This document shows positions 12,919-47,048 of a DNA stretch of 64,000 bases, in pieces (position 1 is the stretch's first letter; the number at the start of each line of letters is the position of its first letter). The DNA comes from Escherichia phage LHE83. The notes below the pieces were generated by a model that saw only the letters and a list, made by a program, of their open reading frames with translations, was not told where the DNA came from and made no database searches. The stretch lies in the sequence record OQ561750; one strand, given 5' to 3'. Made by a program: the position numbers and the translations under genes.

Positions 12919-13134
12919 ATGGAAATTATTGGTTTTATTCTTGCTTATCTTGTGATAGGATTTATTACTGCTTTGATTGCGCATAAAACAGGCGCGTGGA
13001 ACCCGGTTAAAATTGAATCAAGCTATGATGCGGTATTCATTACATTTGTATGGCCAGTATTTTGCTTTGCCTGGTTATGTATGCTAATTCTGTGGCCTAT
13101 CGCTAAACTCTATGAAAAATTATTTGGACTCTGA
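12919..13134 (+). CDS. hypothetical small membrane protein
   Basis: ORF track; two hydrophobic segments. Confidence 0.5.
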   Translation: MEIIGFILAYLVIGFITALIAHKTGAWNPVKIESSYDAVFITFVWPVFCFAWLCMLILWPIAKLYEKLFGL

Positions 13135-13135
13135 T

Positions 13136-14005
13136 ATGAACATTAAAACACGTAAAGAATATTCCATCTATGACCATGACACGACTCGTCGTATCGCTAT
13201 CGATCGGCTGGCAGACTTTGGCCATATTTGTAATGGTAATTATACTTATGGTGTAGGTCGTAAAGGGACTTATATTAGTTCTTTGAACGATTATTGCCGT
13301 TGCCCTGCTCATTTATTTGGTGCAACACTGCGAGCTAATATCAAAGACCTCTTGGCTACCGCAGGACGTATTTCTACGGTTCCTGTCAATATCAAGAATA
13401 TTAATTTTACGGCTCGTAACCTAGTCATTAATATTCTGCCTGACGGTATTCAAGTTCGTTTCCGTCCCACCTCAAAAGGCAATAAGGCTCTTCGTGAAGC
13501 ATTCGAAACCTTATTCAGGGAAGCAATGACTCGTATTAAGGCAGTAGAATCATATAAAGTTACAACCGATGAATATGCTGATTGTTTTGAGCGGGCTGAT
13601 GCAGTTTATTTTAATATTAAACTAACTCGTGAATATCTTTTGTCTTATGCCCCTTATCAATCCCAACAAAAGGAACCACAAATGGAACGTCGTATCTCTG
13701 CAGTATCATGTGACAGCGTAGGCCAGTATGCAGCCTATGACAAATTCAAAACCACTGCTGTACCAAGCCCATTCAATTCCGAACCGTATCATTGGAAAAT
13801 TAAACCTGATAATTCTTTGGTTATTACTAACCCTACGATGAAACCTATCGAGAAGTATCATGAGGACCACCTCCAGGAATCAATCCACCGTTTAAACGGC
13901 CAGATCGAAGATGAGAAAAAGAGTATTCAAGACGTATTGATTCGCATCAAGAACATGGAACTCCAGCGTGACAAGCTCCGCGCGGCAGTATTAGCTCTAA
14001 AATAA
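13136..14005 (+). CDS. hypothetical protein with C-terminal coiled-coil tail
   Basis: ATG immediately after the upstream stop chosen over track start 13112. Confidence 0.55.
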   Translation: MNIKTRKEYSIYDHDTTRRIAIDRLADFGHICNGNYTYGVGRKGTYISSLNDYCRCPAHLFGATLRANIKDLLATAGRISTVPVNIKNINFTARNLVINILPDGIQVRFRPTSKGNKALREAFETLFREAMTRIKAVESYKVTTDEYADCFERADAVYFNIKLTREYLLSYAPYQSQQKEPQMERRISAVSCDSVGQYAAYDKFKTTAVPSPFNSEPYHWKIKPDNSLVITNPTMKPIEKYHEDHLQESIHRLNGQIEDEKKSIQDVLIRIKNMELQRDKLRAAVLALK

Positions 14006-14006
14006 T

Positions 14007-14040
14007 GTTTACATCCAAGGACGGATGGAGTATAATCTTT
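14007..14040 (+). promoter_or_regulatory. early promoter
   Basis: GTTTAC then TATAAT with about 19 nt spacing, then CTACTGAGGAG Shine-Dalgarno. Confidence 0.5.
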
Positions 14041-14063
14041 TTAAATCTACTGAGGAGAATATC

Positions 14064-15074
14064 ATGACTCGTACTGAATACATTAATGCCTTTACTACGT
14101 ATATCACTGCCAACACCCCTCCGTTAACCCCATACGAGGTAATAGTTTCTAATATCAATAAATGGGTCGACCAAATTGATGATGCATTATCGCGCTGTTT
14201 CAAAGCTGAAATCGAAAAGATTGCAGGCCGTTTGTGCATTCATGATATCATTAAAACATTTAAAGGTTCTCGACTGCTTTCGCGCCTGGTCAATAAGGAC
14301 ATCCTTTCTGAGTTCGGTAAAGAGAAATATCCAGGTTCCAACCGTGTTGTTAGCTACAAATGGTTTGGTGATACCATAAAAGGTTATATCAAAATTAAAG
14401 GTATGGACCCTAATAGTTTATTTCCGCAACGTTGGGTTAGCGAATTCAAGGCTAACTCTGCATTAATTCTCAAAGCGGCCTCTAAAACTATAGTTTCCGG
14501 TGATTGTCGTACTATTCACCCGATGGCTAATTGCATGATTAAAACAAATAGTTATAAAGGAAAAGCTATTATTTCTGTTATTTGGTCACCTAATAGGAAA
14601 CCTAAAGATGATGCGGAAGTTGTAAAGTATCAAGATATTGCTTACGATACCTTGAATACTATCGAACAAGCTTTAGCTCTGATGGATACCGTAGAGAAAT
14701 ATGAGACCCAAGAAGTTAAACACCACTTAGGCTGGAAAGGATATGAGGTCTTAGTAACAGTCCGTGAAATCAAATGTACCGTTCCAAAAACTGATGCTGA
14801 AATTTACAAAGAAAAATGTGAGGAAATTGTGAACACTGATAAAGAGCCTGCTACATTAGAAGATTTGATTAACGACTTGAACAGCCCTATCATGGCCCCT
14901 ACACCAATTACTAAATCCAAGTTACCGGAAGTCGTTGCCTTGGAAAAAGCGTATAAAGACGCCCTTGCTATCAACAAAAAACTGACTGGCCAATATACTG
15001 CTGCCAAGAAACTTTGGGAAGAGTCTACCAATCGTTTAGACCGTCTTGAACAGGCTCTGGAGCTGCTGAAATGA
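14064..15074 (+). CDS. hypothetical protein with C-terminal coiled-coil tail
   Basis: ATG after GAGGAG Shine-Dalgarno; track start 14025 lies inside the promoter. Confidence 0.55.
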   Translation: MTRTEYINAFTTYITANTPPLTPYEVIVSNINKWVDQIDDALSRCFKAEIEKIAGRLCIHDIIKTFKGSRLLSRLVNKDILSEFGKEKYPGSNRVVSYKWFGDTIKGYIKIKGMDPNSLFPQRWVSEFKANSALILKAASKTIVSGDCRTIHPMANCMIKTNSYKGKAIISVIWSPNRKPKDDAEVVKYQDIAYDTLNTIEQALALMDTVEKYETQEVKHHLGWKGYEVLVTVREIKCTVPKTDAEIYKEKCEEIVNTDKEPATLEDLINDLNSPIMAPTPITKSKLPEVVALEKAYKDALAINKKLTGQYTAAKKLWEESTNRLDRLEQALELLK

Positions 15075-20178: not shown

Positions 20179-20874
20179 ATGCACTATTGTTATATGACCA
20201 CTATAAAATCCGAAAATGATACTTATTACTATTTCGGTAAACACACCGGATTTATAGATGACGGGTATGTCGGTAGTGGCAAATTCGTAGAAGATGCTAA
20301 GGCCTCAGGGAAATGCTCTTTTAATATAGAGGCCTTATGTTATTTTGAGACAAGTGAGCTTGCTTTTGAATTTGAAGAGCTTTTGGTAGAAAATGCCATG
20401 TCCGAAATAACTAACTGCGTCAATATGAAACCTGGTGGTATAGGTGGTTATGCTCCTCCGACACCGGAAAGACTTGAAGAACAGTCTAAAGAAGTTACCG
20501 AACGCTGGCAGGACCCTGAATATAAAGAGCGGGTTTCCAACTCTATTAAAAAGTCTTGGGAAAATGAAGAGCATCGAGAAATGATGCGTCGAATCCATAA
20601 AGAGTATAATGCTAATCCTGAAGTTAGAGAGGCCAAAAGTAAAAAGAACAAAGAATATTACTCTATAGAGAATTATTCCAAGTTTGCTAAAAATCCAACA
20701 TATGTATTATATGATGAGTTCCATGAACTTTGGATTAAGGAAGGACGCCCTAGTTATTCTAAATTCTGGCGCAAATGCTGTGAACTATGTTATCCATATA
20801 CGATAAATAATTTTAGACCACTAGTTGATAGGTTTAAGAGGGCTTATGAATCAGGTGAAGTTAACAAAAAATAA
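20179..20874 (+). CDS. GIY-YIG homing-endonuclease-like protein (Seg/Mob-like)
   Basis: YYYFGKHTG...YVGSGK GIY-(10 to 11 aa)-YIG spacing; basic C-terminal half; 3' end overlaps the gene 55 start. Confidence 0.55.
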
Positions 20875-25680: not shown

Positions 25681-25740
25681 ATTAAGTGCTTTAAAATATT
25701 GATTTATAATACATCTACCAACCAAATGAGAGAAAATATT

Positions 25741-26154
25741 ATGTTTGCTAACGCTATTACTGTTAAAGATATCCAAGTTAAAACCATTCGTACTGATTCC
25801 AACCCACATAATCAAAACCGTATCCGTAAATCATGGGTACTGAATATTGATACCGACTCTGCACGTCGTCTGCAGTCTCTTCCACAAGAAACTAAGTTCA
25901 TGCTCTACGGTATCATTGATAACGACGTATCCGATAAGTGGGTAGAAATTATGCGTCGCCACTATAATGATTCACTGGCCGCAGGTGCTAAACTGGTTAT
26001 CGACCGTGATGGTTCTGAACGTCTCGAAGATGATTATTGTGTAGATTTTGACGAACAACTGCTTGAAGCTGGTGCTATTGTTGCTTCCCAGATTCCAGAG
26101 TATATTGAATCTCTGCCTGAATCCATTCGTAAACAAATGATCGTTATTGCTTAA
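25741..26154 (+). CDS. rpbA: RpbA-like protein (by position between 46 and 45)
   Basis: Internal ATG after GAGAGAAAAT Shine-Dalgarno; syntenic with T4 rpbA; sequence not independently recognised. Confidence 0.45.
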   Translation: MFANAITVKDIQVKTIRTDSNPHNQNRIRKSWVLNIDTDSARRLQSLPQETKFMLYGIIDNDVSDKWVEIMRRHYNDSLAAGAKLVIDRDGSERLEDDYCVDFDEQLLEAGAIVASQIPEYIESLPESIRKQMIVIA

Positions 26155-29133: not shown

Positions 29134-31845
29134 ATGCAAGAATTCTATTTGACAGTCGAACAAATCGGTGATAATATTCTCGAACGTTACATCGATAAAA
29201 ATGGTAACGAACGTAGTCGTGAAGTTCCATACAAGCCTACAATGTTTATGCATGCTAATCCAGAGCAAGCCGTAAAATACATTGATATCTATGGTAAGGG
29301 TTGTGTTAAGAAAGAATTCGATTCTATGCGTGATGCATCCCAATGGATGAAACGTATGGATGATATGGGTCTCGAAGCCCTGGGTATGGACGACTATAAA
29401 TTAGCCTATTTGTCTGATACCTATCGTAAAGAAATCAAATATGATTCTTCTAAGATTCGTATTGCTAACTTCGACATCGAGGTAACATCTCCTGATGGAT
29501 TCCCTGAACCAGCTCAGGCTAAACATCCTATCGATGCCATTACCCACTACGACTCGATTGACGATAAATTCTATGTATTCGACCTTTTAGTTTCGCCTTA
29601 TGGTACTGTCGAAGAGTGGTCGATTAAAATCGCTGAGAAACTCCAAGACGAAGGCGGTGACGAAGTTCCACAAGAAATCATTGACAAAATCGTTTATCTT
29701 CCGTTTAATTCTGAAGAAGAAATGATGCTTGAGTACTTGAATTTCTGGCAACAGAAAACTCCTGTGATTTTGACTGGATGGAACGTTGAGTCGTTTGACG
29801 TACCATACGTTTATAACCGTCTGAAAAATCTGTTCGGTGAGAACACTGCTAAGCGATTAAGCCCACATCGTAAAACTCGTGTTAAAGTTATCGAGAACAT
29901 GTACGGTGCTCGTGAAATCATTACATTGTTCGGTATCTCTGTTCTGGATTATATCGACCTGTATAAAAAATTCAGCTTTACCAACCAGCCTTCTTATTCT
30001 CTGGATTATGTTTCTGAATATGAATTGAAAGTAGGTAAGTTGAAATATGATGGCCCAATCTCCAAGTTACGTGAGACGAACCACCAACGATATATTTCCT
30101 ATAACATTATCGACGTATATCGTGTAGTGCAGATTGATATGAAGCGTCAGTTCATTCTTCTGAGTTTGGACATGGGTTATTATGCCAAGATGCAGATTCA
30201 GTCGGTGTTCAGCCCAATTAAGACTTGGGACGCTATTATCTTTAATAGCCTTAAAGAACAAGGCAAGGTAATTCCACAAGCTCGCTCACACGTGGTCCAA
30301 CCTTATCCTGGTGCTTTCGTTAAGGAACCGATTCCTAACGCTTACAAATATGTAATGAGTTTCGACCTTACATCTCTGTACCCGAGTATCATTCGACAAG
30401 TGAATATAAGCCCAGAGACCATCGCAGGGACATTCGCTAACGCACCGATACATGAATATATTGCCGGAACTGCTCAGCGTCCTAGCGACACCTACAGTTG
30501 CTCTCCTAACGGCATGATGTACTATAAAGACCGTGAAGGTGTGATTCCGACAGAAATCACCAAGGTATTCTTGCAGCGTAAAGAACATAAAGGTTACATG
30601 CTTGCAGCTCAACGTAATGGTGAGTTAATTAAAGAAGCATTGGAAAATCCTAATCTCTCAGTTGATAGTCCACTGGATATCGATTATCGTTTTGACTTCT
30701 CTGACGAAATCAAAGCCCAGATTAAAGCACTGTCAGCGCCTTCTTTAAGAGAAATGTTGAAGAAAGCCGAGCTCACTGAAGTTGCAGGTAACACTGCTCA
30801 GATTAACCGTAAGTTGCTTATCAACTCCCTTTATGGTGCACTTGGTAACGTATGGTTCCGTTACTATGACCTCAGGAACGCAACTGCAATCACATTGTTT
30901 GGTCAAATGGCCCTCCAATGGATTGAACGTAAGGTTAACGAATATCTGAATAGCGTGTGTAAGACTGAAAACCAGAAGTTCGTGCTCTACGGTGATACTG
31001 ACTCCATTTATGTTAAGGCAGATGCAATCATCAATAAAGTAGGCGAAGATAAATTCCGTGATACTAACCACTGGGTCGACTTCTTAGATAAATTTGCACG
31101 TGAACGTATGGAACCAGCTATTGATGCAGGCTTCCGTGAGATGTGCGAATACATGAACAACAAACAACACTTGATGTTCATGGACCGAGAAGCTATCGCA
31201 GGTCCTCCACTTGGTTCTAAAGGCCTTGGTGGATTCTGGACAGGCAAGAAACGTTATGCACTTAACGTTTGGGACATGGAAGGTACTCGTTATGCTGAAC
31301 CACACTTGAAAATCATGGGTCTCGAAACTCAGAAATCAAGTACACCTAAAGCAGTTCAGAAAGCTCTGAAGGAATGTATCCGTCGTATGCTTCAGGAAGG
31401 CGAGGCATCTTTGCAAGAATATTTCAAACAGTTTAATAAGGAATTTAACGAACTCGATTATGTAAGCATTGCAGCAGTATCCAGTGCTAACAACATCGAG
31501 AAATATAATGAAGGTGGATTCCCGGGTTCTAAATGTCCATACCACATCAAAGGTTGCTTAGCTTACATGCGTGCTTCTGCAGGTGATTTGACTATGCCTC
31601 GTATCGTTGATGGTGAAAAGGTATATGTACTGCCACTTAAAGAAGGCAACCCGTTTGGTGAAGCTTGTATGGCATGGCCGTCAGGTATTGAACTTCCGGT
31701 TCAGATTCGTGACCAAGTCCTCCGTTGGATGGACTACAACGTACTGTTCCAAAAGACCTTTATCAAACCTCTGACCGGTTTTACTGAGTCTGCTAAAATC
31801 GACTACGAGAAAAAAGCAACATTATTTGATATGTTCGACTTTTAA
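29134..31845 (+). CDS. 43: DNA polymerase gp43 (family B)
   Basis: Start at internal ATG (MQEFYLTVEQIGDN) after AAAGGAAATGAA RBS, giving 903 aa; exo motifs FDIEV and YNIIDV; pol motifs SLYPSI, KILINSLYGALG, YGDTDS; track start 29074 is TTG. Confidence 0.95.
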   Translation: MQEFYLTVEQIGDNILERYIDKNGNERSREVPYKPTMFMHANPEQAVKYIDIYGKGCVKKEFDSMRDASQWMKRMDDMGLEALGMDDYKLAYLSDTYRKEIKYDSSKIRIANFDIEVTSPDGFPEPAQAKHPIDAITHYDSIDDKFYVFDLLVSPYGTVEEWSIKIAEKLQDEGGDEVPQEIIDKIVYLPFNSEEEMMLEYLNFWQQKTPVILTGWNVESFDVPYVYNRLKNLFGENTAKRLSPHRKTRVKVIENMYGAREIITLFGISVLDYIDLYKKFSFTNQPSYSLDYVSEYELKVGKLKYDGPISKLRETNHQRYISYNIIDVYRVVQIDMKRQFILLSLDMGYYAKMQIQSVFSPIKTWDAIIFNSLKEQGKVIPQARSHVVQPYPGAFVKEPIPNAYKYVMSFDLTSLYPSIIRQVNISPETIAGTFANAPIHEYIAGTAQRPSDTYSCSPNGMMYYKDREGVIPTEITKVFLQRKEHKGYMLAAQRNGELIKEALENPNLSVDSPLDIDYRFDFSDEIKAQIKALSAPSLREMLKKAELTEVAGNTAQINRKLLINSLYGALGNVWFRYYDLRNATAITLFGQMALQWIERKVNEYLNSVCKTENQKFVLYGDTDSIYVKADAIINKVGEDKFRDTNHWVDFLDKFARERMEPAIDAGFREMCEYMNNKQHLMFMDREAIAGPPLGSKGLGGFWTGKKRYALNVWDMEGTRYAEPHLKIMGLETQKSSTPKAVQKALKECIRRMLQEGEASLQEYFKQFNKEFNELDYVSIAAVSSANNIEKYNEGGFPGSKCPYHIKGCLAYMRASAGDLTMPRIVDGEKVYVLPLKEGNPFGEACMAWPSGIELPVQIRDQVLRWMDYNVLFQKTFIKPLTGFTESAKIDYEKKATLFDMFDF

Positions 31846-31847
31846 GT

Positions 31848-31880
31848 GTTTACATACCACAAGGAACGTGGTAGTATCCT
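31848..31880 (+). promoter_or_regulatory. early promoter cassette
   Basis: GTTTAC...GTAGTATCC...CCTATCAAC; TACCAC/GTGGTA inverted repeat. Confidence 0.5.
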
Positions 31881-31907
31881 TCCTATCAACTACATGAGGA
31901 AATTACA

Positions 31908-32144
31908 ATGGAAGCTTTAATCGTTAGTGCTGGTGTTTTAGGATTCGGTTCTCTGGTTATTATGTTCATCGGTTACTTTTTACCATGGATTCTGGCTCTT
32001 CTGCGAGGCACTCGTAGTAATGTCGGAATTTTCTTCCTTAATCTCCTGTTAGGCTGGACGATGATTGGTTGGGTAGTGGCTTTAATCTGGGCTATCGTCG
32101 CTGAACGTAAATCAAACGCACAAATCATTATTGTTAAGCAATGA
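31908..32144 (+). CDS. imm: superinfection immunity protein Imm-like
   Basis: 78 aa, two transmembrane segments; FFLNLLLGWTMIGWVVALIWA resembles the Imm family signature; syntenic with T4 imm downstream of 43. Confidence 0.65.
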   Translation: MEALIVSAGVLGFGSLVIMFIGYFLPWILALLRGTRSNVGIFFLNLLLGWTMIGWVVALIWAIVAERKSNAQIIIVKQ

Positions 32145-32285
32145 AAATAATTATTTTATTTCTTATAATGACTGCCTTTACCATTTATTGGGCAGTGGCA
32201 ATTCCGCCAATGATTCCGACACTCATCATTGGATGGATTATTCTTATAGCACAAATTAAGTATAACTGTTTTAATTGAGGATATT

Positions 32286-32786
32286 ATGAAAAAGTTAATT
32301 ATCGCAATGAGTATGCTCCTATCAGGTTGCGCGGTCCAATATGGTGATACAGTTTCGGCTGATGAAGTTGGTAAAGCTCGTATCGCAGCTGAACAGAAAC
32401 AATTCGATGGCGAAATGAAATTCCGTGCAGGTTCTGGACTTGTGTACACCCGAGCTAATAATCAATGCGGTAATAACTGTGCAAAATATGCTCAACAAGA
32501 AATCGAATTCCAACGTGAACAAGAGTCCAAGCGTGAAGCGGTACTAGCCAAACACCAGGCAGAAATGAAGCGTCAAGATGATTTGTACAAAAAGCAGAAA
32601 CTGTATGCGATGTGCGTAAACCATATCAATCTACAGATTTCCATCCACGAGGCTCGTTATTACGAAATGCTCGAAACCGAGAGCTTCGGTAAAGCTCGTG
32701 ATTATAAGAAACAAATCGATAAGCTCAAGACCAAAGCACCGGCGGCAATAGAACAGTGTATTGAAATCGGTAAAGATAAGATTTAA
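32286..32786 (+). CDS. hypothetical lipoprotein
   Basis: Signal peptide with LSGC lipobox; charged helical remainder. Confidence 0.55.
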   Translation: MKKLIIAMSMLLSGCAVQYGDTVSADEVGKARIAAEQKQFDGEMKFRAGSGLVYTRANNQCGNNCAKYAQQEIEFQREQESKREAVLAKHQAEMKRQDDLYKKQKLYAMCVNHINLQISIHEARYYEMLETESFGKARDYKKQIDKLKTKAPAAIEQCIEIGKDKI

Positions 32787-32846
32787 GCAATACCAATTTA
32801 TTAAAAATAGTGTATAATGTACCTACATTCACTTGAGGAACAGATA

Positions 32847-34520
32847 ATGAAAAAGGTTGTTATTTTAGGCGCGGGTCTTGGCTCACGGTTGTATCCAATT
32901 ACCAACGAAATCCCGAAGGTACTGGTTAACTACAAACAACATACTGTATTAAAACATTTGTATGATTTGTATAGTAATCAATCAGATGAAATTATTCTGG
33001 TTATTCACAGCAAATTTAACGACCTCGTTAAAGGCTATATTAAATCCATTAACATGATTAATAGTGATAAGCCTAAATTCACTATTCGTAACGTTGATGT
33101 TGCCAATGGTTCGGCTCATGCTATCGATTGCATTGCCGAAGATATCATTGGGCACAATGTCTTGTTTAACTGGTGTGATATTATTCCTGAAGGTCATAAA
33201 GTTGAGTGGGATAACGACTACTGTTATACCTATGGGACCGACTGTCGTTTTACATTTGAAGAACCGTACTTGCGTGAAATTGGTACCGGTGGTGGCGTAG
33301 TTGGCTTGTATCAGGTGGCTAATTGGACAGGTTTCGACCGTTCTAATTATGGTGAAGACCTTGCTGACAACCTGGATTCAATGGTCCATTTGACTGAACG
33401 TAAGTTAGACTTTGTAGTTGATGTTGGTGACAAACTGAAACTGGCTAAGGCCCATGAAGATTCTGAAATTAACCGTGAATTTAATAAATTAGAGTTCACT
33501 GAGAATCTAGCTATTAAAGTACCTACAAACGAATTAGGTAAAGAAATCCAATCTAAAGAAATCAATTGGTACAATTCTATTGATTCTGAATTCGTTCCTA
33601 GCATTGTAGACTTTGCTCCAGGTGAATTCATTAAAATGGAACGTATCTTTGGTCGAACCATGGCAGATGCCTACCGGTTTATGTCTAAAGAAACTAAAGT
33701 CCTAATGGTTTATAAGGTTATTAGTGCATTACGTTCGTTCGGTGGAACTATCGATAATCCGTCCGATGAGCAATGGTATTCTGATGTTAAGAAAGAAGTA
33801 TTGGACAAGGTCCTTATTCGTAATGCTTCTATTGCCGGATTGATTGAAGGCTTTGCTCCACAGGGTATTACCCATGTTAACGACTTCAAGGTAGGCGACC
33901 CAGAAAAACTTCTTCGTCACGCCTTAGAAATTCTGTCTGAACATAAAGAACCGTACCAACTTATTCATGGCGACCCGCACTACAGTAATATTATGTTGTC
34001 GGACGAAGGTAATATTAAAATCATCGACCCACGTGGTTATTTTGGTAATAGTTCTAAAGGCCCTGCGATTTATGATGAAGCTAAGGTGCTTTATTCTATC
34101 GATGGTTATGACAAATTTAACTCTGACCCTCTATGGGGTGGCTTAACTCGTAACGGAACTCGTGTATTCGTTGATATTGAAAAGGTTATGCCTTTAGATG
34201 ATATTCCGATGTGTACATTTAAGCACAAGCTCTGGATTGCCGTTATTTGGATGGCATTGGCAGGTTACTTTAAAAATAACCCTCTGAAAGCTCTGGGCGC
34301 TTATTACAATGGGCTATATCAACTGAGTGTGCTGCTGAAGCGGCATCCTCGTAAGCGTAAGCTTATCACAGGTGAATTCGTTGATGAAGTTCGCGACCCT
34401 ATCACGGCTCAAATTATCACTCGTTGTCCTGATAAGTGGGTTTTGCTTGACCAGGAAACTGGTGTAAAATATAAACCTACAGGTTCTACCGAACTCCACA
34501 AACAATGGAAGAAAATTTAA
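32847..34520 (+). CDS. bifunctional nucleotidyltransferase / kinase (LicC- or MurU-like N-terminus, APH/choline-kinase-like C-terminus)
   Basis: ATG after GAGGA Shine-Dalgarno; N-terminal KVVILGAGLGSRLYPIT sugar-phosphate nucleotidyltransferase motif; C-terminal IHGDPHYSNIML...IIDPRGY kinase catalytic-loop pattern. Confidence 0.7.
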   Translation: MKKVVILGAGLGSRLYPITNEIPKVLVNYKQHTVLKHLYDLYSNQSDEIILVIHSKFNDLVKGYIKSINMINSDKPKFTIRNVDVANGSAHAIDCIAEDIIGHNVLFNWCDIIPEGHKVEWDNDYCYTYGTDCRFTFEEPYLREIGTGGGVVGLYQVANWTGFDRSNYGEDLADNLDSMVHLTERKLDFVVDVGDKLKLAKAHEDSEINREFNKLEFTENLAIKVPTNELGKEIQSKEINWYNSIDSEFVPSIVDFAPGEFIKMERIFGRTMADAYRFMSKETKVLMVYKVISALRSFGGTIDNPSDEQWYSDVKKEVLDKVLIRNASIAGLIEGFAPQGITHVNDFKVGDPEKLLRHALEILSEHKEPYQLIHGDPHYSNIMLSDEGNIKIIDPRGYFGNSSKGPAIYDEAKVLYSIDGYDKFNSDPLWGGLTRNGTRVFVDIEKVMPLDDIPMCTFKHKLWIAVIWMALAGYFKNNPLKALGAYYNGLYQLSVLLKRHPRKRKLITGEFVDEVRDPITAQIITRCPDKWVLLDQETGVKYKPTGSTELHKQWKKI

Positions 34521-34879
34521 TGCATCTGTGTTTTGATATCGATAATACCATTACTCACTGGCAAGATGACCGTGATTACGAAAACTTTAAACCGGACACC
34601 GAAATGGTGTCCATGATTAATAAGCTTTATGATGAAGGGTACGAGATTACCTTGTTCACTGCCCGTGGTATGACTTCATGCGGCCCGGGTCGAATCTTGG
34701 TTGAAGTAGTTCCTGCATTAGTTAAGAACCTTGAAAAGATTGGATTGAAATATCACAATCTGCTTACACATAAGCCGAGTTATACTTTTATCATCGATGA
34801 CCGAGCAATCCGTCCTGACCACTTTAAAGAAATGGTTCGTGAAGGAACTCTTGAAACCTATAAGGCATATCATCCGTGA
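34520..34879 (+). CDS. HAD-superfamily phosphatase
   Basis: TAATG coupling to the upstream gene; motif I FDIDNTIT (DxDxT) near the N-terminus; LFTARG motif II-like. Confidence 0.6.
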   Translation: MHLCFDIDNTITHWQDDRDYENFKPDTEMVSMINKLYDEGYEITLFTARGMTSCGPGRILVEVVPALVKNLEKIGLKYHNLLTHKPSYTFIIDDRAIRPDHFKEMVREGTLETYKAYHP

Positions 34880-35412
34880 AACCAAAAATCATTGTTATCG
34901 ACGGCCCGGATAATTCCGGGAAGTCTACTTTAATTGAATCACTTTTATCTGATAAGAAATATCGTCTTATTGATTTCCCTAAAAAGATTAATGGCAAATG
35001 CATTTCATTAGGGACCGATAATGACAAGGCTTTAGTCGAGACGTTGTATAAGTTTTTAGACCCTAATTTCGTTTACATCCTTGACCGTGGTTATCCAAGT
35101 AATATTGTTTACTCGGGATTCCTTCGCGGTGAAATGGACCCTTATGTAGAACTGGAAGATTGGAAAAGGTTTAAATCTGAATTCAATATTATTGAGGTTA
35201 TTTTAACCCGTAATCCACTGGATAAAGACTTTGAAGATGACCTTATTAAATTAACCAAAGATGAGTTCAACCTAACTATCCGGCAATATGAAACATGTTT
35301 TGAAAACGTGTTTAAAATCTTAAATCACGACGGCCATAATAACTTGCTTAACGTCGATATGGTAGAATTAAAACGTCTGAATGAATATATTGAAAATAAG
35401 GTGAATAAATGA
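34876..35412 (+). CDS. P-loop kinase (nucleoside/nucleotide-kinase-like)
   Basis: GTG start overlapping the upstream stop; KIIVIDGPDNSGKSTL Walker A resembles dNMP or small-molecule P-loop kinases. Confidence 0.55.
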   Translation: MKPKIIVIDGPDNSGKSTLIESLLSDKKYRLIDFPKKINGKCISLGTDNDKALVETLYKFLDPNFVYILDRGYPSNIVYSGFLRGEMDPYVELEDWKRFKSEFNIIEVILTRNPLDKDFEDDLIKLTKDEFNLTIRQYETCFENVFKILNHDGHNNLLNVDMVELKRLNEYIENKVNK

Positions 35413-36107
35413 AACACATTACCGCTGTTAGTTTTGAAAACGCGTTTAAGCAAATGAACGAAGAAATCCTGGAAGCTCCACAGTTTGCAGTTGATTCTCG
35501 TATCGGCCGTTGTTATGAAATTGGTTCTGCTTCGGTAGAAGTACTGGATGCAAGCACCTATAAATTCACCGACCCTCGTATTAATCGTATCAACTATGAT
35601 TATGCCGAATCTTTCTGGAAGTTTATGATTTCTGGTGGTACTGACGCCGCCGAAGCATTTAAGGAATACCCTAATGTTGCTAAGTTCATTGATAAGCCGA
35701 AAAGTGACGTATTGCCTGCAAACTTCAACACTTTCTATGGACCTAGAATTGTGGCCCAACTCCCAGCCTTACTTAAAGAGCTTAAAGAGAAGCCTAACTC
35801 AAGACGAGTTGTGTTCCAAATTCTCCAAGAACAAGACCAAGCCCTCCTTGATTCTGACGAATCCTTAGAATATCCATGTACTGATTCAGTGACATATTAT
35901 ATTCGTGATGGACGTCTTTATGCACATACCCATATGCGTTCACAGAACTGTGCTATTGTTATGCAGCTGGATTTCTATCTGCAGGGTAAACTGATGGCCT
36001 TTATTGCTGAACAGTGTGGTGTTGGTCTGGGTACGTATTCCCATACTATGGTTAGTGCACACGTATTTGAACGTGATTTTGACTACGTTCGAGGATTCCT
36101 GAAATGA
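35409..36107 (+). CDS. 42: dCMP hydroxymethylase (thymidylate-synthase fold)
   Basis: KPNSRRVVF, YPCTDSVTYYIRDG...HMRSQN and VSAHVFER align with T4 gp42 active-site segments from memory; syntenic position. Confidence 0.75.
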   Translation: MKHITAVSFENAFKQMNEEILEAPQFAVDSRIGRCYEIGSASVEVLDASTYKFTDPRINRINYDYAESFWKFMISGGTDAAEAFKEYPNVAKFIDKPKSDVLPANFNTFYGPRIVAQLPALLKELKEKPNSRRVVFQILQEQDQALLDSDESLEYPCTDSVTYYIRDGRLYAHTHMRSQNCAIVMQLDFYLQGKLMAFIAEQCGVGLGTYSHTMVSAHVFERDFDYVRGFLK

Positions 36108-36997
36108 GTTTGTTTATCGTTCCTATTTTCAGTATGCGTAGTTACGAAACAGGTGAATATGCCGTCCTTAAGGACGGTAATTTTCAACTCCATTTAAACC
36201 GTGCTTGCCCAGGTGATTATCTGGCTTATCCTAGAAATTCGAGCGATATCAAAGAATGCATTGAATTATTTCCTGAACTGAATTTTGTACCTCTTTGGTA
36301 TAAAGAAAATGCTTATGAAACTCGTAAACATTTTTGGTCTGAAAATGAGTTCGTTGTTGATTCGTTAATCGAATACTATGACTGCTCAGGATTGGTAACC
36401 GATATCACAGGTTATGATGGTGCTCATACCGTACAATTCAACTTTAACATTACAATGGACCCTGAAGTTCCTCGTTATTACATCGATGAGTTTATTGATA
36501 CCGACGTGGGTTCAGTTGAACGTTCGATTTATACCACAGTCCTGAATCAATGCCAGAAAGACGTCCTGGTGTCACGAGGTGCGTCCTCTGATAAGATTTT
36601 TGTAGACCAAAAGGTAATTAATCCGGCAGTAATTGAGCGTTACTCTGAAGGCCTAGCGCCTATTAAAATTGATGGTATTTTCCATCCATTCCGTATCTCT
36701 GATAAATGTTATCAATTCGAAAGAGTTGTAGACCAAGCTGCGGCTGAAGGTTCTCGCCTTTATATCACCGATCCGAATGATTCATTTAAGCGTGAAGACT
36801 ATCGTCCTGATGTAGAGATTATTAAATTCAAACCGAGTAAGGTTGAATATTATCAGATTCTGAAATCAAGACCTCATATCATTTATCATGAGAATCCCAG
36901 TTTAGTATTTCATCCTGGTCTAGCTGAATTCATTTATTTCGGTGCCCATATCCATTCTGAGCACGAAATGCCAAGTTATGAGGACGTGGTCCTTTAA
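36104..36997 (+). CDS. hypothetical protein in the beta-glucosyltransferase slot (putative DNA glycosyltransferase)
   Basis: ATGA-coupled to gene 42 and directly upstream of uvsX, where T4 carries beta-gt; no recognisable similarity to T4 beta-gt. Confidence 0.45.
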   Translation: MSLFIVPIFSMRSYETGEYAVLKDGNFQLHLNRACPGDYLAYPRNSSDIKECIELFPELNFVPLWYKENAYETRKHFWSENEFVVDSLIEYYDCSGLVTDITGYDGAHTVQFNFNITMDPEVPRYYIDEFIDTDVGSVERSIYTTVLNQCQKDVLVSRGASSDKIFVDQKVINPAVIERYSEGLAPIKIDGIFHPFRISDKCYQFERVVDQAAAEGSRLYITDPNDSFKREDYRPDVEIIKFKPSKVEYYQILKSRPHIIYHENPSLVFHPGLAEFIYFGAHIHSEHEMPSYEDVVL

Positions 36998-37074
36998 CGC
37001 TGTAAATGTGAAGTGATATAATTACCCTATCTTAAAACGTGAGTAAAATATAATGATGCCTATGGAAAAATATA

Positions 37075-38247
37075 ATGTCTGATTTAAAATCCCGTTTGAT
37101 TAAAGCTTCTACTTCTAAAATGACTGCCGACCTGACCAAATCTAAATTGTTTAATGGTCGTGACGAAGTTCCTACTCGTATCCCTATGCTGAATATTGCA
37201 TTAGGCGGTGCGTTGAATGCAGGCTTACAATCAGGTTTGACAATCTTTGCTGCTCCATCTAAACACTTTAAAACGTTGTTTGGACTTACCATGGTTGCGG
37301 CATATATGAAGAAATATCCAGACGCAATTTGTTTGTTCTACGACTCTGAGTTTGGTGCTTCAGAATCTTATTTCCGTTCGATGGGTGTTGATTTAGAACG
37401 TGTGGTTCATACACCAATCCAGTCAGTCGAACAGCTTAAAGTTGATATGACCAACCAATTAGAAGAAATTACTCGTGGCGAAAAGGTTATTATCTTTATC
37501 GACTCCATCGGTAACACTGCTTCTAAGAAAGAAACCGAAGATGCTTTGAACGAGAAAGTTGTAGGTGATATGACTCGTGCTAAATCACTGAAATCTCTGT
37601 TCCGTATCGTAACACCTTATCTGACCATCAAGGATATCCCTTGTGTAGCAATTAACCACACGGCTATGGAAATTGGTGGAATGTACCCTAAAGAGATTAT
37701 GGGTGGTGGTACTGGTATTCTGTACTCTGCTTCTACCGTGTTCTTTATCTCTAAACGTCAGGTTAAAGATGGTACTGAGCTCACTGGTTATGACTTCACA
37801 CTGAAGGCCGAGAAATCTCGTACGGTTAAAGAGAAATCAACGTTCCCGATTACAGTGAACTTCGAAGGTGGTATCGACCCATTCAGTGGATTGCTTGAAA
37901 TGGCTACTGATATTGGCTTTGTCGTGAAACCTAAAGCTGGCTGGTATAATCGTGCATTCCTTGACGAAACCACAGGCGAAATGGTTCAAGAAGAAAAAGC
38001 ATGGCGTGCTAAAGCTACTGATTGTGTTGAGTTCTGGGGACCACTGTTTAAACATGCTCCGTTCCGTGAAGCAATCGAGAATAAGTATAAGCTTGGTGCA
38101 ATTAATTCTATTAAAGAAGTTGACGATGCGGTTAATGACCTTATTAACTCTCGTGTCTCTAAGAACGTTGCTGTTAAATTAGGTGGTAATGCCCAAAGCG
38201 CCGCTGATATCGAAAACGATTTGGAAGAGATGGATTTAGATGACTGA
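37075..38247 (+). CDS. uvsX: RecA-like recombinase UvsX
   Basis: 390 aa; MSDLKSRLIKASTS...; Walker A APSKHFKT region; near-identical to T4 UvsX from memory. Confidence 0.9.
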   Translation: MSDLKSRLIKASTSKMTADLTKSKLFNGRDEVPTRIPMLNIALGGALNAGLQSGLTIFAAPSKHFKTLFGLTMVAAYMKKYPDAICLFYDSEFGASESYFRSMGVDLERVVHTPIQSVEQLKVDMTNQLEEITRGEKVIIFIDSIGNTASKKETEDALNEKVVGDMTRAKSLKSLFRIVTPYLTIKDIPCVAINHTAMEIGGMYPKEIMGGGTGILYSASTVFFISKRQVKDGTELTGYDFTLKAEKSRTVKEKSTFPITVNFEGGIDPFSGLLEMATDIGFVVKPKAGWYNRAFLDETTGEMVQEEKAWRAKATDCVEFWGPLFKHAPFREAIENKYKLGAINSIKEVDDAVNDLINSRVSKNVAVKLGGNAQSAADIENDLEEMDLDD

Positions 38248-43306: not shown

Positions 43307-43828
43307 ATGGCACACTTTAACGAATGCTCACAACTTATTGCTGGTGTTGATAAAGCTGAGGAAGCTTATTTTAATGCTCTGATTCACGAAGATAAAGACC
43401 CTCTGCAGGTTATGCTTGATATGCAGAAATCATTACAGGTCCGTTTGGCTAAAGATAAACCTGAATATAACCGTCATCCTGATGACTTGGCTACTGCAGG
43501 TGAAGTTGTTGATTGGTTGCGCAATCAGAAAGATTATATTGATGATGAATTCCGCGAACTTCTGACTTCTCTTGGTGGCATGAGCAATGGCGAAAAAGAT
43601 GCGAGCGCTGTATGGAAGCCTTGGAAAGCTCAACATGCTGAACGTCGTGAAACCCTGATTAACGATTTGTCTCCTGAAGACCAGCTCGAAATTAAATTCG
43701 AAATGATTGATATTCTGCACTTTGTTCTGAATATGTTCCAAGGTCTTGGACTGACTGCTGAAGAAATCTTTAAACTGTATTACCTGAAAAATGCCGAGAA
43801 CTTTGCTCGCCAGGACCGAGGTTATTAA
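43307..43828 (+). CDS. 56: dCTPase/dUTPase gp56
   Basis: MAHFNECSQLIAGVDKAEE...DPLQVMLDMQ...EIFKLYYLKNAENFARQDRGY near-identical to T4 gp56 from memory. Confidence 0.9.
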   Translation: MAHFNECSQLIAGVDKAEEAYFNALIHEDKDPLQVMLDMQKSLQVRLAKDKPEYNRHPDDLATAGEVVDWLRNQKDYIDDEFRELLTSLGGMSNGEKDASAVWKPWKAQHAERRETLINDLSPEDQLEIKFEMIDILHFVLNMFQGLGLTAEEIFKLYYLKNAENFARQDRGY

Positions 43829-43830
43829 GT

Positions 43831-43838
43831 TATAAATA
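43831..43838 (+). promoter_or_regulatory. late promoter TATAAATA upstream of soc
   Basis: Exact late consensus about 30 nt upstream of the soc ATG. Confidence 0.55.
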
Positions 43839-43869
43839 CACCTGTAATTAAACAACAAAGGAGTTAATT

Positions 43870-44103
43870 ATGGGTGGTTTCGTTAATATTAAAACCTTTA
43901 CGCATCCGGCTGGTGAAGGTAAAGAAGTTAAAGGTGTTGAAGTATCTGTCCCGTTTGAAATCTATTCAAACGAGCATCGTATTGCGAATGCACACTATCA
44001 GACATTTCCTTCTGAAAAGGCGGCATACACTACTGTAGTAACTGATGCAGCCGATTGGCGAACTAAGAACGCGGCGATGTTTACGCCTACCCCAGTAGTT
44101 TAA
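43870..44103 (+). CDS. soc: small outer capsid protein Soc
   Basis: 77 aa; VNIKTF...AHYQTFPSEKAAY as T4 Soc; late promoter upstream. Confidence 0.85.
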   Translation: MGGFVNIKTFTHPAGEGKEVKGVEVSVPFEIYSNEHRIANAHYQTFPSEKAAYTTVVTDAADWRTKNAAMFTPTPVV

Positions 44104-45809: not shown

Positions 45810-46379
45810 ATGAACATCGAACAAAAATGTCTTTATCAAGACCGAATCAATTCCAAATTCTCAAAACACGAACAGAATCTTTTAGAAAAATGTCTAGATG
45901 CTAAAAAGGACCCTAACTTCCATTACGACCTTGATAAGCTAGTTCGTAAGCATGTTACTTCAGCGGTTCCGGTAGAGCTTTATCGTGGGATTACCGCTAT
46001 GGAACTTGAGCAACTTGAAGTTCTTTCTGTTGGGTGCCAGTGGTCTCCTGGCCGGGTTACTTCTTTTAGTACACAATACTCACAGGCTCGTCAGTTCGCA
46101 GGGGCATGGGAATATGGAACCAGAACCATTTTAAGTCTCAGGAATGCACCGTTCATTTTCGACTACTATAACCATGCTATCGACCTTGTTCTTGCAGGGA
46201 ATGTAGATGAGCTTGAAATAGATGAAACCCGTATAGACCTCTACGATATGGTCGAAACTGAATGTGAGTTCATGGTCTCCAGCCAATCACGATTTGAGAT
46301 TGTGGAAATCGAAACTATCAAAAGGGACCCGTACGAAATCGAGTACAAAACAATTCATTTAAAAATGTTGGATTTTTAG
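45810..46379 (+). CDS. ModA/ModB-family ADP-ribosyltransferase
   Basis: R-S-E signature: YRG, SFS(T), acidic catalytic segment; syntenic with T4 modA/modB. Confidence 0.6.
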   Translation: MNIEQKCLYQDRINSKFSKHEQNLLEKCLDAKKDPNFHYDLDKLVRKHVTSAVPVELYRGITAMELEQLEVLSVGCQWSPGRVTSFSTQYSQARQFAGAWEYGTRTILSLRNAPFIFDYYNHAIDLVLAGNVDELEIDETRIDLYDMVETECEFMVSSQSRFEIVEIETIKRDPYEIEYKTIHLKMLDF

Positions 46380-46410
46380 TTTACAGGCAAGGAAGCTTGT
46401 GGTACTATCT
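46379..46410 (+). promoter_or_regulatory. early promoter cassette
   Basis: GTTTAC...GTGGTACTATCTTTCTATCAACT. Confidence 0.5.
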
Positions 46411-46433
46411 TTCTATCAACTGAGGAGAATAAT

Positions 46434-47048
46434 ATGTTATATCCAAGCCATAAATTAGCAGAATTTATCAACAACGCCAAATGCGATGATTTCCGTGAGA
46501 ATACTCAGATAGAAATTGATGAGGTGTATTCTGATTTAGAACAGAGCACGCTCTGGCAGTGTATGGAAAATAAACCAGATACTATCCAGGAAACTCTGAA
46601 CAAAATTATTCGTAAGAACCTGACTTCTGCAGTGCCTGATAAGTTGTATCGCGGAATTTCTAAGAAGACTATGGCATATCTTGAATCTACGATGTGCGTA
46701 GGTGCTGTAATTGAATTCGACCGTGTGATGAGCTTCTCAAAAGATTTCAATGTAGCTCGTAACTTCGCATCTTATAACTTCTACGGCACATTTAATATCT
46801 TTTGTATTAATGATGCACCATTTGTGTACAATTATCAGGAAGAAATCTTTAAAATGTTATGTGCCGCGCCCCCTGAAGAGTTCCCAGGTGCATTTCCTGA
46901 ATCTACCCGTGTAGCAAACTTACAATTAATCAATGATGAAGATGAGATGATGTTCCCTGCGGGAACTACGCTGAGCGTAGACTCTATTGAGAGAAATCCT
47001 AAATGGAATAATTACACCATTTGGAATCTTTCCGTTCTTTCTTACTGA
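46434..47048 (+). CDS. ModA/ModB-family ADP-ribosyltransferase (paralog)
   Basis: YRG, SFSK and EDEMMF (E-x-E-like) motifs; paralog of 45810. Confidence 0.6.
   Translation: MLYPSHKLAEFINNAKCDDFRENTQIEIDEVYSDLEQSTLWQCMENKPDTIQETLNKIIRKNLTSAVPDKLYRGISKKTMAYLESTMCVGAVIEFDRVMSFSKDFNVARNFASYNFYGTFNIFCINDAPFVYNYQEEIFKMLCAAPPEEFPGAFPESTRVANLQLINDEDEMMFPAGTTLSVDSIERNPKWNNYTIWNLSVLSY

Follow-up and report, generated by a model that had tools for sequence, protein, structure and literature searches.

Between the DNA polymerase gene gp43 and uvsX, phage T4 carries gene 42 and beta-gt. The 64,000-nucleotide stretch of Escherichia phage LHE83 analyzed here (sequence record OQ561750; hereafter the window) holds in this slot a gene at positions 35,409–36,107 of the plus strand, raising the question of which modified nucleotide its product makes. 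These positions are the exact bounds of an open reading frame encoding a 232-aa protein. The window is a Dhakavirus sequence; 24 kb around the gene are 97–99% identical to phage QL01, and the reading frame itself matches those of QL01 and WG01 at every nucleotide (100% identity). Overlapping minus-strand reading frames (e.g., 35,325–35,759) were rejected, being unsupported and contained within a plus-strand gene that is conserved. The product matches the Pfam family Thymidylat_synt (PF00303; E 4.8e-14) and thereby belongs to the thymidylate synthase superfamily.

We propose that the gene very probably encodes an AfhB-type dCMP 5-hydroxylase (5-hydroxy-dCMP, or 5hodCMP, synthase), which would use flavin and O2 in place of methylene-tetrahydrofolate. 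This assignment draws on the PF00303 match, the crystal structures 9iqu and 9iqc, an AF2 model and 71–79% identity to the enzymes of phages RB69, HY126 and DLP3. For Dhakavirus it is made by homology and signature residues.

A first-pass annotation had described the gene as more diverged from T4 than the replication genes around it. Comparison of T4 proteins with the window by tblastn bears this out, and the gap is large: T4 gp42 aligns at 25% identity over 159 aa (E 2e-9), against 52–88% for neighboring replication genes, including gp62 (52%), gp45 (58%), gp43 (61%), gp41 (65%), gp44 and UvsX (67% each), gp46 (70%), gp47 (71%) and gp55 (79%). The identity of gp42 is therefore nowhere near that of the core genes. 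The motifs quoted at that stage are all present in the window protein (NSRR at residues 130–133, PCTD at 156–159, HMRSQN at 175–180 and AHVFER at 217–222), as is the segment RSQNCAIVMQLDFY; the T4 equivalent quoted with it, RSNDVVFGFRNDYA, is correct for T4 gp42.

Active-site residues were mapped in an alignment of the window protein with E. coli ThyA, the gp42 proteins of T4 and PG7, and six phage homologs. The phosphate-binding arginines of ThyA have counterparts in Arg31 (ThyA Arg21), Arg132 and Arg133 (Arg126 and Arg127) and Arg177 (Arg166); Ser178 (Ser167), Tyr110 (Tyr94) and His218 (His207) are also conserved, and Tyr209 is changed to Phe220. The predicted catalytic nucleophile is Cys157 (ThyA Cys146, T4 Cys148), located in the motif LEYPCTD and encoded at 35,877–35,879 of the plus strand. 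Glu154, at the position of ThyA Leu143, is acidic as in T4 gp42. Asp188 (plus-strand codon 35,970–35,972), the cytosine-specificity determinant, lies opposite ThyA Asn177 and T4 Asp179, so the substrate is predicted to be dCMP and not dUMP. The first-pass annotation had already found this Asp consistent with the same substrate, and further support comes from the HY126 enzyme, 79% identical to the window protein and crystallized with dCMP (PDB 9iqu).

Assignment of the window protein as a thymidylate synthase was rejected. It shares fold, catalytic Cys and phosphate-binding arginines with ThyA and phage td, but is only 14–18% identical to them in the alignment behind the neighbor-joining tree and has Asp188 in place of Asn177. 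NCBIfam thymidylate synthase models score it at 18–63 bits against cutoffs of 108–427 (63 against 175 for the equivalog model), and QL01 possesses a separate td gene.

T4-type hydroxymethylases and hydroxylases alike possess the nucleophilic Cys and the Asp that selects cytosine (T4 Cys148 and Asp179), so these residues do not discriminate between them. Three other features do distinguish the window protein from the T4-type enzymes: Asn180 (plus-strand codon 35,946–35,948, in RSQN) occupies the position of ThyA Asp169, which is retained in T4 and PG7 gp42; Ala, within NVAKF, replaces Trp80, which T4 gp42 retains; and the C-terminal extension, or lid, is missing. In thymidylate synthases, Asp169 contacts the pterin of folate and Trp80 stacks on the folate. 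We infer that the loss of both residues points away from a folate-dependent reaction.

Asn at position 169 (D169N) is the published diagnostic mark of 5hodCMP synthases, and nine of nine further D169N homologs, in addition to those characterized initially, yielded 5hodC (Lee et al., NAR 2026, PMC13326640). According to the same study, the DNA of RB69 and of Acinetobacter phage DLP3 carries arabinose chains joined to cytosine C5 via an ether oxygen, and the thymidylate synthase homologs RB69 gp48 and DLP3 gp80 convert dCMP to 5-hydroxy-dCMP; after labeling with 18O2, the 18O ends up in the product. Both enzymes, once purified, have a yellow color and give off a flavin whose retention time is that of FMN, and a Shewanella Thanatos-2 homolog is among the proteins for which 5hodC formation was demonstrated (PMC13326640). 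The study credits He et al. (Nat Chem Biol 2026, as presented in PMC13326640) with a crystal structure of the HY126 enzyme in its flavin-bound form and with the sugar-activation steps of AfhE and AfhF. According to a second paper, an earlier assignment of the RB69 modification as "arabinosyl-hydroxymethyl-cytosine" is erroneous (PMC13390438).

The window protein is 79% identical to both RB69 gp48 and HY126 AfhB, 81% identical to a homolog from Serratia phage 92A1, and 71% identical to DLP3 gp80 and to the Thanatos-2 homolog. HY126 AfhB (PDB 9iqc, 9iqu and 9ir2), RB69 gp48 and DLP3 gp80, which are identical in function, share with it the length class (232–238 aa), the fold and the residues Cys146, Glu143, Asn169 and Asp177 (ThyA numbering). 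In a neighbor-joining tree, it falls within a clade holding all the Asn169 enzymes (98% bootstrap), which includes homologs from Tenacibaculum, Rhizobium and Agrobacterium phages; the gp42 proteins of T4, PG7 and PS49 form a clade of their own (100%), and both this clade and ThyA/td stand apart.

This placement weighs against the hydroxymethylase reading of the first-pass annotation, by which the gene would be a fast-evolving true ortholog of T4 gene 42 whose folate-dependent product makes 5-hydroxymethyl-dCMP. We regard such orthology as very improbable, although many public records are annotated in this way and the resemblance to T4 gp42 (PDB 1b5e) is considerable: both have the thymidylate synthase fold, covalent catalysis by Cys, an Asp selecting cytosine at the Asn177 position, an acidic residue at Leu143 and dCMP supplied by gp56, and both are encoded between gp43 and uvsX beside a DNA glycosyltransferase gene. 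However, identity to T4 gp42 is 24–25%, and the T4 enzyme, with Asp169 and Trp80, uses methylene-tetrahydrofolate to add CH2OH, whereas the window protein, with Asn169 and Ala80 and no lid, is predicted to introduce OH derived from O2 via flavin. Its homologs at 71–79% identity produce 5hodC and bind flavin, and no glucosyltransferases accompany the gene.

Structural comparison likewise favors a dCMP hydroxylase. The best PDB sequence matches are 9iqu, 9iqc and 9ir2 (E 1.5e-125); the first is entitled "phage HY126 dCMP hydroxylase-AfhB with substrate dCMP" and the second "Monooxygenase dependent on riboflavin with dCMP and FAD". A single-sequence AlphaFold model was unusable (pLDDT 45), and an alignment-based AF2 model (pLDDT 88) was used instead; its top structure match is 9iqc, with a TM score of 0.95 at 79% identity. 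The next solved structure after AfhB is the CMP hydroxymethylase MilA (PDB 5b6d, 5jnh; TM about 0.85, 24% identity, sequence E 1e-14), followed by thymidylate synthases. MilA also targets cytosine, and products of the thymidylate synthase superfamily have surprised before, so one may ask whether the window protein performs some other C5 chemistry, such as methylation of dCMP or addition of a different substituent, or acts on a ribonucleotide. We consider this highly unlikely: MilA is a 318-aa protein performing folate-dependent hydroxymethylation of a ribonucleotide and is 24% identical, against 79% for a characterized dCMP hydroxylase, every signature position fits the hydroxylase group, and the gene lies in a DNA-modification cassette within a phage replication region.

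Conservation among relatives is strict. Glu143, Cys146, Asn169 and Asp177 (ThyA numbering) occur with identical spacing in all 120 of the 120 nearest cluster representatives (50–100% identity), and 46 columns are invariant across homologs of 50–87% identity. Motifs invariant in the family are GGTDA, YPNVAKF and PANFNTFYGPR. Relatives with 97.7–98.3% nucleotide identity to the hydroxylase gene encode a 100% identical protein, all differences being synonymous; judged by these substitutions, the gene is under purifying selection. That the low identity to T4 gp42 reflects a decaying or non-catalytic remnant under relaxed selection is scarcely credible and effectively refuted by these conservation data, given intact catalytic and phosphate-binding residues, the invariant columns, the exclusively synonymous differences between close relatives and a confident AF2 model.

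The genes surrounding the putative hydroxylase are those expected for this chemistry in its published carriers. Downstream of gp43 (29,134–31,845, plus strand; assigned by homology), the window encodes imm (31,908–32,144), a 166-aa ORF (32,286–32,786), an AfhE-like protein, an AfhF-like protein, a kinase, the hydroxylase and a 297-aa transferase, followed by uvsX (37,075–38,247, plus strand; by homology). The AfhE-like gene (32,847–34,520, plus strand) encodes a predicted bifunctional sugar kinase/nucleotidyltransferase with an N-terminal NTP_transferase domain and a C-terminal APH-type kinase domain (Pfam 2.5e-8 and 9e-6), 43% identical to HY126 AfhE and 45% to DLP3 gp82; the mechanical ORF starts at 32,817, and homology and the QL01 annotation place the start at 32,847. 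The AfhF-like gene (34,505–34,879, plus strand, by homology; start at 34,520 in the QL01 annotation) encodes a HAD-type sugar phosphatase, 62% identical to RB69 gp51 and HY126 AfhF, with an NCBIfam capsule-biosynthesis phosphatase match (1.6e-14) under the cutoff. Next comes a thymidylate-kinase-like nucleotide kinase (34,876–35,412, plus strand; phrog_761, 9e-40), homologous to RB69 gp45 and DLP3 gp78 and 37–40% identical to these and to the HY126 homolog.

The gene following the hydroxylase (36,104–36,997, plus strand; phrog_3891) encodes a putative DNA arabinosyltransferase 1, homologous to RB69 gp46:47 (64–70% identity to gp46/gp47), a 299-aa HY126 protein (67%) and DLP3 gp79 (50%); searches of this protein returned no Pfam match and no significant PDB sequence match. 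Its start overlaps the hydroxylase stop (ATGA). The last four cassette junctions overlap by 4–16 nt, two of them as ATGA, which suggests co-translation. A promoter and terminator scan of 31,800–37,200 gave no signal, with 18 promoter-like sites against 18.4 expected.

A five-gene cassette thus replaces the T4 42/beta-gt module between gp43 and uvsX. A tblastn search of the window and of the remainder of QL01 brought up neither T4 alpha-gt nor beta-gt, and a T4-type gp42 is also absent from QL01, which does have genuine td, frd, cd, gp1, denA, denB and alc. The suggestion that the gene was exchanged as one module with the downstream transferase was therefore sound; the original interpretation holds for the substrate and the swap and is not supported for the hydroxymethyl product.

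Compared with the cassettes of HY126, RB69 and DLP3, that of the window has the same neighbors between gp43 and uvsX, namely AfhE, AfhF, the kinase and arabinosyltransferase 1. Unlike in HY126 and RB69, however, its kinase gene lies upstream of the hydroxylase gene, and it has no isomerase, RB69 gp50 homolog or second transferase. Neither the window nor the rest of QL01 yielded an arabinose-5-phosphate isomerase, homologs of RB69 gp3, RB69 gp50 or DLP3 gp76/77, or a second or third transferase. The 166-aa ORF, which sits in the position of the isomerase, contains no SIS domain and gave no informative match otherwise. The gene order of the window recurs in Marfavirus PhiKpNIH-6, whose kinase gene likewise precedes that of the hydroxylase and which also lacks an isomerase.

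For most window genes, identities to T4 and to RB69 are equal to within about 10 percentage points; the exceptions are the cassette and its flanks. Four cassette proteins have no T4 counterpart: the AfhE-like protein is 41% identical to that of RB69 and 80% to that of Marfavirus PhiKpNIH-6, with corresponding values of 62% and 84% for the AfhF-like protein, 37% and 76% for the kinase, and 70% and 68% for the transferase. Identities to T4, RB69 and PhiKpNIH-6, in this order, are 25%, 79% and 86% for the hydroxylase, 67%, 90% and 88% for UvsX, and 61%, 83% and 68% for gp43, against 65%, 67% and 66% for gp41, 70%, 68% and 68% for gp46, and 60%, 59% and 59% for Dda. As read from these values, the identity pattern is that of a mosaic, with the cassette exchanged via its conserved flanks.

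Co-adaptation to 5-hydroxycytosine was considered as a reason for the RB69-like character of several replication proteins. For the dCTPase gp56, encoded outside the cassette (43,307–43,828, plus strand; 69% identical to T4 gp56 and 92% to RB69 gp28), it was rejected: the allele with 87–90% identity is also listed for HP3, slur04 and Sf22, which we take to be hmC-type relatives of T4, and T4 and T2 stand at 69–73%. It was likewise rejected for gp43, which is only 68% identical to its homolog from Marfavirus, the phage with the closest cassette. UvsX identity is at least 83% in the sampled hydroxylase-bearing genera versus at most 72% elsewhere. Linkage to the cassette is a simpler explanation for this gap than adaptation to the base, because uvsX abuts the cassette; a less likely reading is that uvsX travels with the cassette owing to an adaptation of the recombinase to 5hoC-type DNA and not through linkage alone.

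Taken together, the genes permit the following pathway to be proposed. The gp56 dCTPase would convert dCTP and dCDP to dCMP, both supplying dCMP and removing dCTP, a role that is established T4 biology. Cys157 of the hydroxylase would then attack C6 of dCMP, the cytosine base being picked by Asp188, and a flavin-derived oxygen species would hydroxylate the activated C5 to give 5-hydroxy-dCMP, as shown for the RB69, DLP3 and HY126 homologs. A gp1-type dNMP kinase, present in QL01, together with host NDP kinase would produce 5hodCTP; the phage dNMP kinase step from 5hodCMP to 5hodCDP has been shown for RB69, and the NDP kinase step is presumed. The polymerase gp43 would presumably insert 5hodCTP into DNA instead of dCTP. 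In parallel, the AfhE-like and AfhF-like enzymes would turn arabinose-5-phosphate into UDP-arabinofuranose, as shown for HY126 according to the account of that work in PMC13326640, and the 297-aa glycosyltransferase would link arabinose to the cytosine 5-OH in DNA. The host probably supplies arabinose-5-phosphate, as no phage isomerase was found, and the single transferase leads us to predict mono-arabinosylated 5-hydroxycytosine. DNA modified in this way would resist many restriction enzymes.

For the window protein, the hydroxylation step is well supported; less certainty attaches to the sugar and to the final product, because the cassette differs from those of RB69 and HY126 in its missing isomerase, gp50 homolog and second transferase and in an AfhE of 43% identity. 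Given the absence of an isomerase and of an RB69 gp50-like protein and the single transferase, we speculate, as a possibility on the unlikely side, that the Dhakavirus cassette is a stripped-down arabinosyl-5-hydroxycytosine pathway dependent on host KdsD/GutQ, with a product undescribed for the genus, either mono-arabinosyl-5hoC only or a base carrying a different sugar. Dhakavirus and Marfavirus would share this reduced form.

The enzyme family itself is already known biology, having been described and structurally solved in 2025–2026, and Dhakaviruses are already listed, from synteny, among the genera carrying the cluster (PMC13326640). The general point has thus been made in that literature, and the present result is that this Dhakavirus fits the pattern. 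Its practical value lies in correcting annotation: in public records, hundreds of such genes still bear the labels "thymidylate synthase" or "dCMP hydroxymethylase", and reasoning from T4 gives hydroxymethylcytosine instead of glycosylated 5-hydroxycytosine. Whether a given restriction, CRISPR or type IV system can attack a phage depends on the chemistry of the base, as does the range of enzymes able to cut or sequence its DNA; this is relevant to therapy candidates of the JS98/QL01 group.

The DNA modification cassette of phage LHE83 and its Dhakavirus relatives (AfhE-like gene, AfhF-like HAD phosphatase, kinase, AfhB-type dCMP 5-hydroxylase and arabinosyltransferase 1 homologue; 32817–36997) lacks several components known from related phages. 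Searches of the cassette, of QL01 loci L017–L019 and of the rest of the genome of the close relative QL01 turned up no arabinose-5-phosphate isomerase, no protein similar to the 386-aa RB69 gp50, and no second or third arabinosyltransferase. In the inspected region of Marfavirus PhiKpNIH-6, which carries the closest cassette, no isomerase gene was seen between gp43 and AfhE. A 386-aa protein occupies the slot of RB69 gp50 there, the likeness being one of position and length.

Phages RB69, HY126 and DLP3 carry the isomerase gene at roughly the position held in LHE83 by a 166-aa ORF (phrog_1754; 32286–32786, plus strand), located between imm and the AfhE-like gene. Searches of this ORF against Pfam and NCBIfam returned no match, and a homologue is absent from T4, RB69 and the Marfavirus region. 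The gene imm itself (31908–32144) lies between gp43 and the cassette, a placement shared with T4 (order 42-imm-43), whereas in RB69 and HY126 it is relocated to the sp/61.4 region.

The hydroxylase contains three family-invariant motifs, GGTDA, YPNVAKF and PANFNTFYGPR, within residues 76–113 (DNA about 35634–35747). Thymidylate synthase binds folate through the equivalent segment. In the structural model of the hydroxylase this stretch has the lowest confidence (pLDDT 60–79); it may be a mobile lid or a cofactor site that has been remodelled. Public records matching 34505–36997 disagree in their labels for the cassette genes, and most of these labels are wrong. The hydroxylase appears as "thymidylate synthase", "dCMP hydroxymethylase" or "hypothetical", and the HAD phosphatase as "phosphoheptose isomerase". 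Several records also carry the label "RNA polymerase binding protein" on a feature that the match covers; in Thanatos-2 this note is placed on the ORF directly downstream of the hydroxylase.

Poorly conserved ORFs also occur elsewhere in the window, all on the plus strand. A 231-aa ORF upstream of gp55 (20179–20874) shares only 25% identity with a T4 sequence and gave no match in a Pfam search. A DUF7235 protein (13112–14005) and a 349-aa ORF (14025–15074) show weak conservation relative to T4, and both are missing from the RB69 regions inspected.

Most remaining genes of the window are equidistant from T4 and RB69, while several are nearer to RB69 by 20–49 percentage points: gp43 (29134–31845; 61% identity to T4 versus 83% to RB69), uvsX (37075–38247; 67% versus 90%), gp56 and soc (43307–44103; 69% versus 92% and 47% versus 96%, respectively), modB and modA (45810–47048), and rpbA (25699–26154). 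These genes are Mosigvirus-like mosaic patches. The dCTPase gp56 (43307–43828) falls into two allele classes among T4-like phages; the LHE83 protein is 87–90% identical to the allele of HP3, slur04 and Sf22, which we take to be Tequatroviruses, versus 69–73% to those of T4 and T2.

Among the sampled matches, UvsX identities appear bimodal: Mosigvirus, Marfavirus, Edwardsiella phage PEi20 and Serratia phage WSPA reach 83% or more, and values do not exceed 72% for Gaprivervirus, the other Klebsiella phages and T2/T4. Within the high-identity set, the check for the hydroxylase covered Mosigvirus and Marfavirus, and both carry it. The two modes could have arisen as the recombinase adapted to modified DNA; the likely cause, however, is linkage of uvsX to the modification cassette.
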